64,000 bases of DNA from Escherichia coli (GTDB lineage Bacteria; Pseudomonadota; Gammaproteobacteria; Enterobacterales; Enterobacteriaceae). Shown piece after piece: positions 58,876 to 58,893 of this stretch. Position 1 is the stretch's first letter. Each line of letters begins with the position of its first letter. The notes under the pieces are model-generated. The model was not told where the DNA came from, did not search any database, and worked only from the letters and a program-made list of their open reading frames with translations. The stretch is from the NCBI RefSeq assembly GCF_003334305.1, contig NZ_QOWS01000008.1. One strand, written 5' to 3'. A program made the position numbers and the translations under genes.

Positions 58876-58893
58876 ATGTTCGATAACGAACAT
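58876..58893. promoter_or_regulatory. GlpR operator in the glpE/glpD divergent promoter region
   Basis: atgttcg-ataa-cgaacat inverted repeat just upstream of glpD. Confidence 0.55.

Follow-up and report, generated by a model that had tools for sequence, protein, structure and literature searches.

The spacer between the divergently oriented genes glpE and glpD of Escherichia coli contains a palindrome shortly before the glpD start codon. This raises the question whether the sequence is a binding site of the repressor GlpR, a signal in the glpD transcript, a target of some other regulator or an inverted repeat without function. We followed this question in a stretch of 64,000 nucleotides of contig NZ_QOWS01000008.1 (RefSeq assembly GCF_003334305.1), which is called the window throughout. 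An earlier note, written from the letters of the window, had described an inverted repeat with 7-bp arms, placed it in the glpE/glpD divergent region 34 nt upstream of the glpD start, and read it as a GlpR operator, possibly with a tandem copy downstream. The repeat ATGTTCGATAACGAACAT is indeed present at 58876-58893 and consists of two perfect 7-bp arms flanking ATAA; compared with its own reverse complement, it shows a mismatch at two central bases only. Its position was also given correctly: it lies inside the 189-bp glpE/glpD spacer (glpE start at 58737), and the distance of 34 nt corresponds to 58927 minus 58893, so that 33 nt separate the last base of the palindrome from the ATG. Here, the annotated ATG was taken as the start of glpD, the GTG at 58912 being merely the start of the longest open reading frame.

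Each of the 5,426 complete E. coli genomes matched a 1.1-kb query around the palindrome, 1,732 of them with an identity of at least 99%, and a 127-bp promoter query was present in all but one of the 5,426 (at least 99% identity in 4,103). The glpE-glpD spacer together with the ATG is 100% identical to K-12 MG1655, the strain used in the published studies, and because of this identity results published for K-12 transfer directly to the window. The protein expected to bind the glpD operators is GlpR, whose gene is intact and located 1.4 kb from the palindrome (Table 1). It encodes a DeoR-family repressor of 252 amino acids with a full-length match to NF008154; NCBIfam equivalog models likewise identify GlpD and GlpE (Table 1). 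Unlike this intact copy, glpR is annotated as a pseudogene with a frameshift in the MG1655 reference. On the other side, a strain-variable island adjoins glpD at 60484-64000: several minus-strand genes for hypothetical proteins (for example 60484-61089 and 61092-61859) are found in the window 3' of glpD, where MG1655 carries yzgL and glgP.

Table 1. Genes, putative promoter elements and operators around the glpE-glpD spacer (window coordinates).
Feature	Position	Strand	Remarks
glpR	56761-57519	-	RefSeq annotation; NCBIfam NF008154, 552.8 bits (cutoff 331)
glpG	57536-58366	-	RefSeq annotation
glpE	58411-58737	-	NCBIfam NF001195; first gene of the divergent glpEGR operon
CRP-like box	58814-58829	.	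TGTTA-N6-TCACT; both pentamers conserved, N6 varies across genera
Putative weak -35 hexamer	58849-58854	+	TTACCT; 17 bp upstream of the -10 hexamer
Probable -10 hexamer of glpD	58872-58877	+	TAATAT; 5/6 columns invariant
OD1, very probably the primary GlpR operator of glpD	58875-58894	.	20-bp unit TATGTTCGATAACGAACATT, containing 58876-58893
Presumed glpD transcription start	58885	+	7 nt after the conserved -10 hexamer
OD2, very probably a second, weaker GlpR operator	58895-58914	.	TATGAGCTTTAACGAAAGTG
glpD	58927-60432	+	RefSeq annotation; NCBIfam NF008899, 836.5 bits

The bare shape of the palindrome carries no significance. Perfect inverted repeats with 7-bp arms and a 4-nt spacer occur 15 times in the 64-kb window (about four in mononucleotide shuffles), and allowing spacers of 0 to 10 nt increased the number of inverted repeats with 7-bp arms to 103. 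Specificity comes from the particular sequence: for the exact 18-mer, only 0.02 near-matches were expected in shuffles. Because the palindrome shape is unremarkable in this window, the evidence for a function must come from sequence identity and location.

The window was scanned with the symmetric consensus WATGTTCGWTAWCGAACATW, a 20-bp GlpR-type unit derived from the unit around the palindrome, in the following termed OD1. OD1 is the sole 20/20 match in the 64 kb. This score is circular, given that OD1 itself supplied the consensus, and only recurrence elsewhere counts as independent evidence. The runner-up scored 16/20, and a score of at least 14/20 was reached at 15 positions. In its structure, OD1 is composed of two inverted 10-bp half-sites (WATGTTCGWT-like) with the cores TCG and CGA. 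A further unit, OD2, begins exactly 20 bp after the OD1 start and matches the consensus in 14/20 positions, the background frequency of scores of at least 14/20 being 2.3e-4 per position. The half-site-like AACGAAAGTG at 58905-58914, from which tandem operators had been suggested, turned out to be the right half of this 14/20 copy and hence stands in exact 20-bp register with OD1.

Further copies of the motif were observed at other glp operons of K-12. The 272-bp glpT-glpA spacer contains four matches of at least 13/20, forming two pairs 40 bp apart, where about 0.31 were expected (P about 3e-4). The region upstream of glpF contains three matches of at least 14/20 with spacings of 20 and 42 bp, where about 0.10 were expected (P about 1.5e-4). 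With the OD1-derived consensus, these two clusters amount to 10 to 30 times background, and two of the glpT/glpA matches are GlpR sites that were copied from RegulonDB in a published supplementary table. Like the operators of glpD, those of glpFKX and glpTQ/glpACB consist of 20-bp units with TCG/CGA cores, several of which are arranged at 20- or 40-bp phasing, but they are degenerate (13-15/20), and OD1 of glpD alone is perfect. Such degeneracy has also been noted in the literature: of the 17 GlpR sites in RegulonDB, nine differ from the consensus at at least 9 of 22 positions (PMC7567609). This recurrence of the 20-bp unit in phased groups at other glp control regions bears out the GlpR assignment of the earlier note. 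It is very probable, close to certain, that OD1, with the palindrome as its core, is the high-affinity GlpR operator of the glpD promoter and that the weaker OD2 adjoins it.

Two internal glpD operators (OD3 and OD4) were reportedly described by Yang and Larson in 1996, at +568 to +587 and +609 to +628. The best 20-mers overlapping these positions reach 11/20 and the sites are hence unrecovered by the consensus scan, in which no 20-mer starting between +496 and +587 reached 11/20.

The distribution of the exact 18-mer was determined with one genome per species (298 Gb). Upstream of glpD, it is present in Escherichia (four species-level genomes), Citrobacter (seven), Salmonella arizonae and Salmonella diarizonae. 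An identical 18-mer adjoins glpT and glpR in Photobacterium ganghwense (Vibrionaceae; positions 76-93 of the retrieved locus), the neighbours being recognised by NCBIfam with 873.6 bits (glpT) and 453.4 bits (glpR); here, it lies 57 bp upstream of the start of another gene, which is truncated at the locus end. Twelve non-enterobacterial matches (Bacteroides, Akkermansia, archaeal MAGs and others) were set aside, as their number fits the chance expectation of about nine.

For a phylogenetic footprint, ten metagenome contigs were chosen only by the first 41 nt of the glpD coding sequence in a non-E. coli form, so that the resulting alignment of 11 enterobacterial sequences was assembled without reference to the operator. 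In OD1, 16/20 columns are invariant and in OD2 14/20, including 8/10 in its right half, which adds to the case for the tandem operator. The glpE-proximal part of the spacer is barely alignable (8/68 invariant columns, 52% mean pairwise identity). Seven of the ten contigs read TATGAGCGATAWCGAACATT, with TGAGCG in the left arm. The right half-site of OD1 is fixed and the left arm drifts to a TGAGC form, which also occurs in OD2 and at glpFK; because the left arm drifts while the right half stays fixed, base-pairing of the arms is not the conserved feature. Perfect symmetry over 7 bp is thus a lineage-specific state, confined to Escherichia, Citrobacter and some Salmonella, and such a palindrome with a fixed right and a drifting left half is of possible specialist interest.

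Turning to the promoter, the probable -10 hexamer overlaps the left edge of OD1. It reads TATTAT in 10/10 metagenome contigs, in Citrobacter and in one of the two Salmonella genome loci. Within the putative -35 hexamer, 4/6 columns are invariant, and most other genera have TTACCA. Scanning the glpE-glpD spacer for sigma-70 promoters and terminators gave nothing above threshold, and since the consensus scanner found no promoter, both assignments rest on conservation. With the -10 hexamer at this place, transcription should start near 58885, 42 nt before the ATG, where Ye and Larson reportedly located the start in 1988. Relative to this presumed start, OD1 is centred at -0.5, OD2 at +19.5 and the CRP-like box at -63.5. 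In the latter, the pentamers are kept while the N6 between them varies, as would be expected for a genuine CRP site. A conserved pair of TGTT(T/A) repeats, set 10 bp apart at 58835-58853 (AATGTTTTTTCAATGTTACC), overlaps the -35 region; together with further TGTT motifs at 58814 and 58878, the pair resembles ArcA direct repeats. Control of glpD by CRP, GlpR and ArcA has been described (PMC3390287). A genomic-SELEX study predicted RpoD hexamers in the glpE/glpD spacer, TTTACG...CATAAT and TTGAAA...TATAAC (PMC3946193); these map to about 58783-58814 on the plus strand and 58815-58846 on the minus strand, upstream of the promoter assumed here.

From this arrangement, classical steric repression can be proposed. 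GlpR would bind OD1 (about -10 to +10) and OD2 (about +11 to +30) as adjacent 20-bp units, probably in a cooperative manner as the literature suggests. With its -10 hexamer and start site covered by bound repressor, the promoter would then be closed to RNA polymerase. Upon binding of glycerol-3-phosphate, GlpR would be released from the operators, and the CRP site at -63.5 might help the weak glpD promoter to fire. For glpD, we infer GlpR binding, inducer release, the start position and cooperativity or take them from the literature. Binding of glycerol-3-phosphate to GlpR, which lifts the repression, has been reported; four operons, glpD among them, are regulated by GlpR and possess 4-8 sites each (PMC7567609; PMC4117983). 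According to the Larson laboratory, the main glpEGR promoter is not regulated by GlpR (PMC2593051), and because of this the operator pair serves glpD only, despite its location in a divergent spacer.

Could the palindrome act at the level of RNA instead, as a hairpin in the glpD 5' leader that serves as attenuator, stabiliser or processing site? Folded as RNA, a 31-nt stretch formed a 7-bp hairpin of -6.6 kcal/mol with a z-score of -3.2 compared with shuffles, but any perfect palindrome would fold likewise. Both arms would be included in transcripts from the predicted upstream plus-strand promoter (about 58783-58814; PMC3946193). With the -10 hexamer at 58872-58877, however, the start falls inside the palindrome and the RNA therefore carries the right arm only, and the leader from +1 showed no unusual structure (z = -0.37). 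Moreover, no U-tract follows the hairpin, and the spacer scan found no terminator-like site. In the footprint, seven of the ten contigs pair TGAGCG with CGAACA, by which 2/7 base pairs are broken with no compensation, whereas this variant retains the GlpR half-site pattern known from OD2 and glpFK. We therefore regard an RNA function in place of a DNA site as highly improbable. The chance that we are dealing with an inverted repeat without any function is practically nil: although 15 palindromes of like geometry in the window compared with about four in shuffles would favour such a view, it is opposed by the unique 20/20 score together with an in-register tandem copy, by the retention of the palindrome across genera within an otherwise diverged spacer and by the presence of further copies of the motif at other glp operons. 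Conservation and recurrence data effectively refute it.

It is likewise very doubtful that the site is bound mainly by a regulator other than GlpR. ArcA represses glpD anaerobically. Its control of glpD is documented (PMC3390287), and the conserved TGTT(A/T/C) motifs at 58814, 58837, 58847 and 58878 are reminiscent of ArcA direct repeats; yet the GlpR assignment would stand even if ArcA overlapped the site as a further regulator. The other protein to be considered is DeoR, which is paralogous to GlpR (DeoR family) and, like ArcA, may be an additional binder. The operators of the deo operon are similar to those of the glp system in that they are palindromic, start with TGTT and end with AACA, occur in multiple copies and respond to a sugar-phosphate inducer. 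Between the 16-bp core of the glpD palindrome and the DeoR palindrome TGTTAGAATTCTAACA, 11/16 positions match. In contrast, the deo core is TAGAA and the glp core TCGAT, both regulon and inducer differ, and the glpD site falls outside the DeoR set. The cores conserved here are TCG/CGA and not TAG/CTA, and the genes that accompany the motif across families are glp genes (in E. coli glpD, glpT/glpA and glpFK; in Photobacterium glpT-glpR) and not deo genes. Zeng, Ye and Larson are said to have found in 1996 that GlpR equipped with the DeoR recognition helix bound neither a glp nor a deo operator. What the helix swap shows is that operator binding depends critically on the recognition helix; it is no test of wild-type DeoR on a glp operator.

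As a GlpR operator, the site belongs to a well-known system. Ye and Larson reportedly footprinted the glpD operator in 1988, and the operator is listed in RegulonDB. Yang and Larson reportedly described in 1996 tandem operators that extend over the -10 element and the 30 bp following the start. This extent would equal exactly 58875-58914, provided that the start is 58885, and neither of the two studies is reported to place the footprints elsewhere. On the basis of the sequence and of these reports, the site in the window is very probably the already known tandem OD1/OD2 operator pair of K-12 glpD: the locus is the same, and the spacer DNA shows no sequence difference. With a footprint dating back to 1988 and an entry in RegulonDB for this operator, the analysis offers nothing new on glycerol regulation, and the correct location of a textbook operator with its tandem partner from sequence alone is a positive control only. 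Binding of GlpR at the glpD locus, its release by glycerol-3-phosphate and the relief of repression by operator mutation have reportedly been published (Ye & Larson 1988, J Bacteriol 170:4209; Yang & Larson 1996, J Bacteriol 178:7090), and both publications are cited in a later study (PMC7567609). Full-text literature searches for the operator sequence gave no match, and those for descriptions of the glpD operator returned citing papers only; a paper on GlpR of P. putida does not treat the operators of E. coli.

Among the consensus matches of the window, the second rank (16/20) is held by TATTTTCGTTTTCGCGCATT, located at 57537-57556 at the junction of glpG and glpR. It comprises the last six codons and the stop codon of glpG and lies 18-37 bp upstream of the glpR ATG. 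The nine other loci of Escherichia, Citrobacter and Salmonella which extend this far all possess an equivalent site with 15-18/20; in Citrobacter sp. R56, the junction reads TATGTTCGTTTTCGCACATT (18/20). At the junction, the block AATGYGCGRAAACGAA is nearly invariant, whereas exchanges occur among the encoded residues (Ala to Val, Lys to Thr). It includes two CGA codons for arginine, a codon rarely used in E. coli. Judging from this sequence pattern, the site is a candidate for a fifth GlpR operator, which might act by looping to OD1/OD2 over about 1.3 kb or in autoregulation of glpR, but such a role seems rather unlikely. With no more than about five synonymous positions involved, and these in related sequences, the evidence is thin. 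If true, a junction operator would contradict the published view that glpEGR is not controlled by GlpR (PMC2593051). The conserved GlpR-like site is thus a lead, not a finding, of possible interest to specialists. In E. coli, 16 bp separate the stop codon of glpG from the start codon of glpR (about 57520-57536 in the window). In three species, C. werkmanii, S. arizonae and Citrobacter sp. NCU1, REP-like or palindromic-looking insertions of about 30 to more than 150 bp separate the junction block from glpR.
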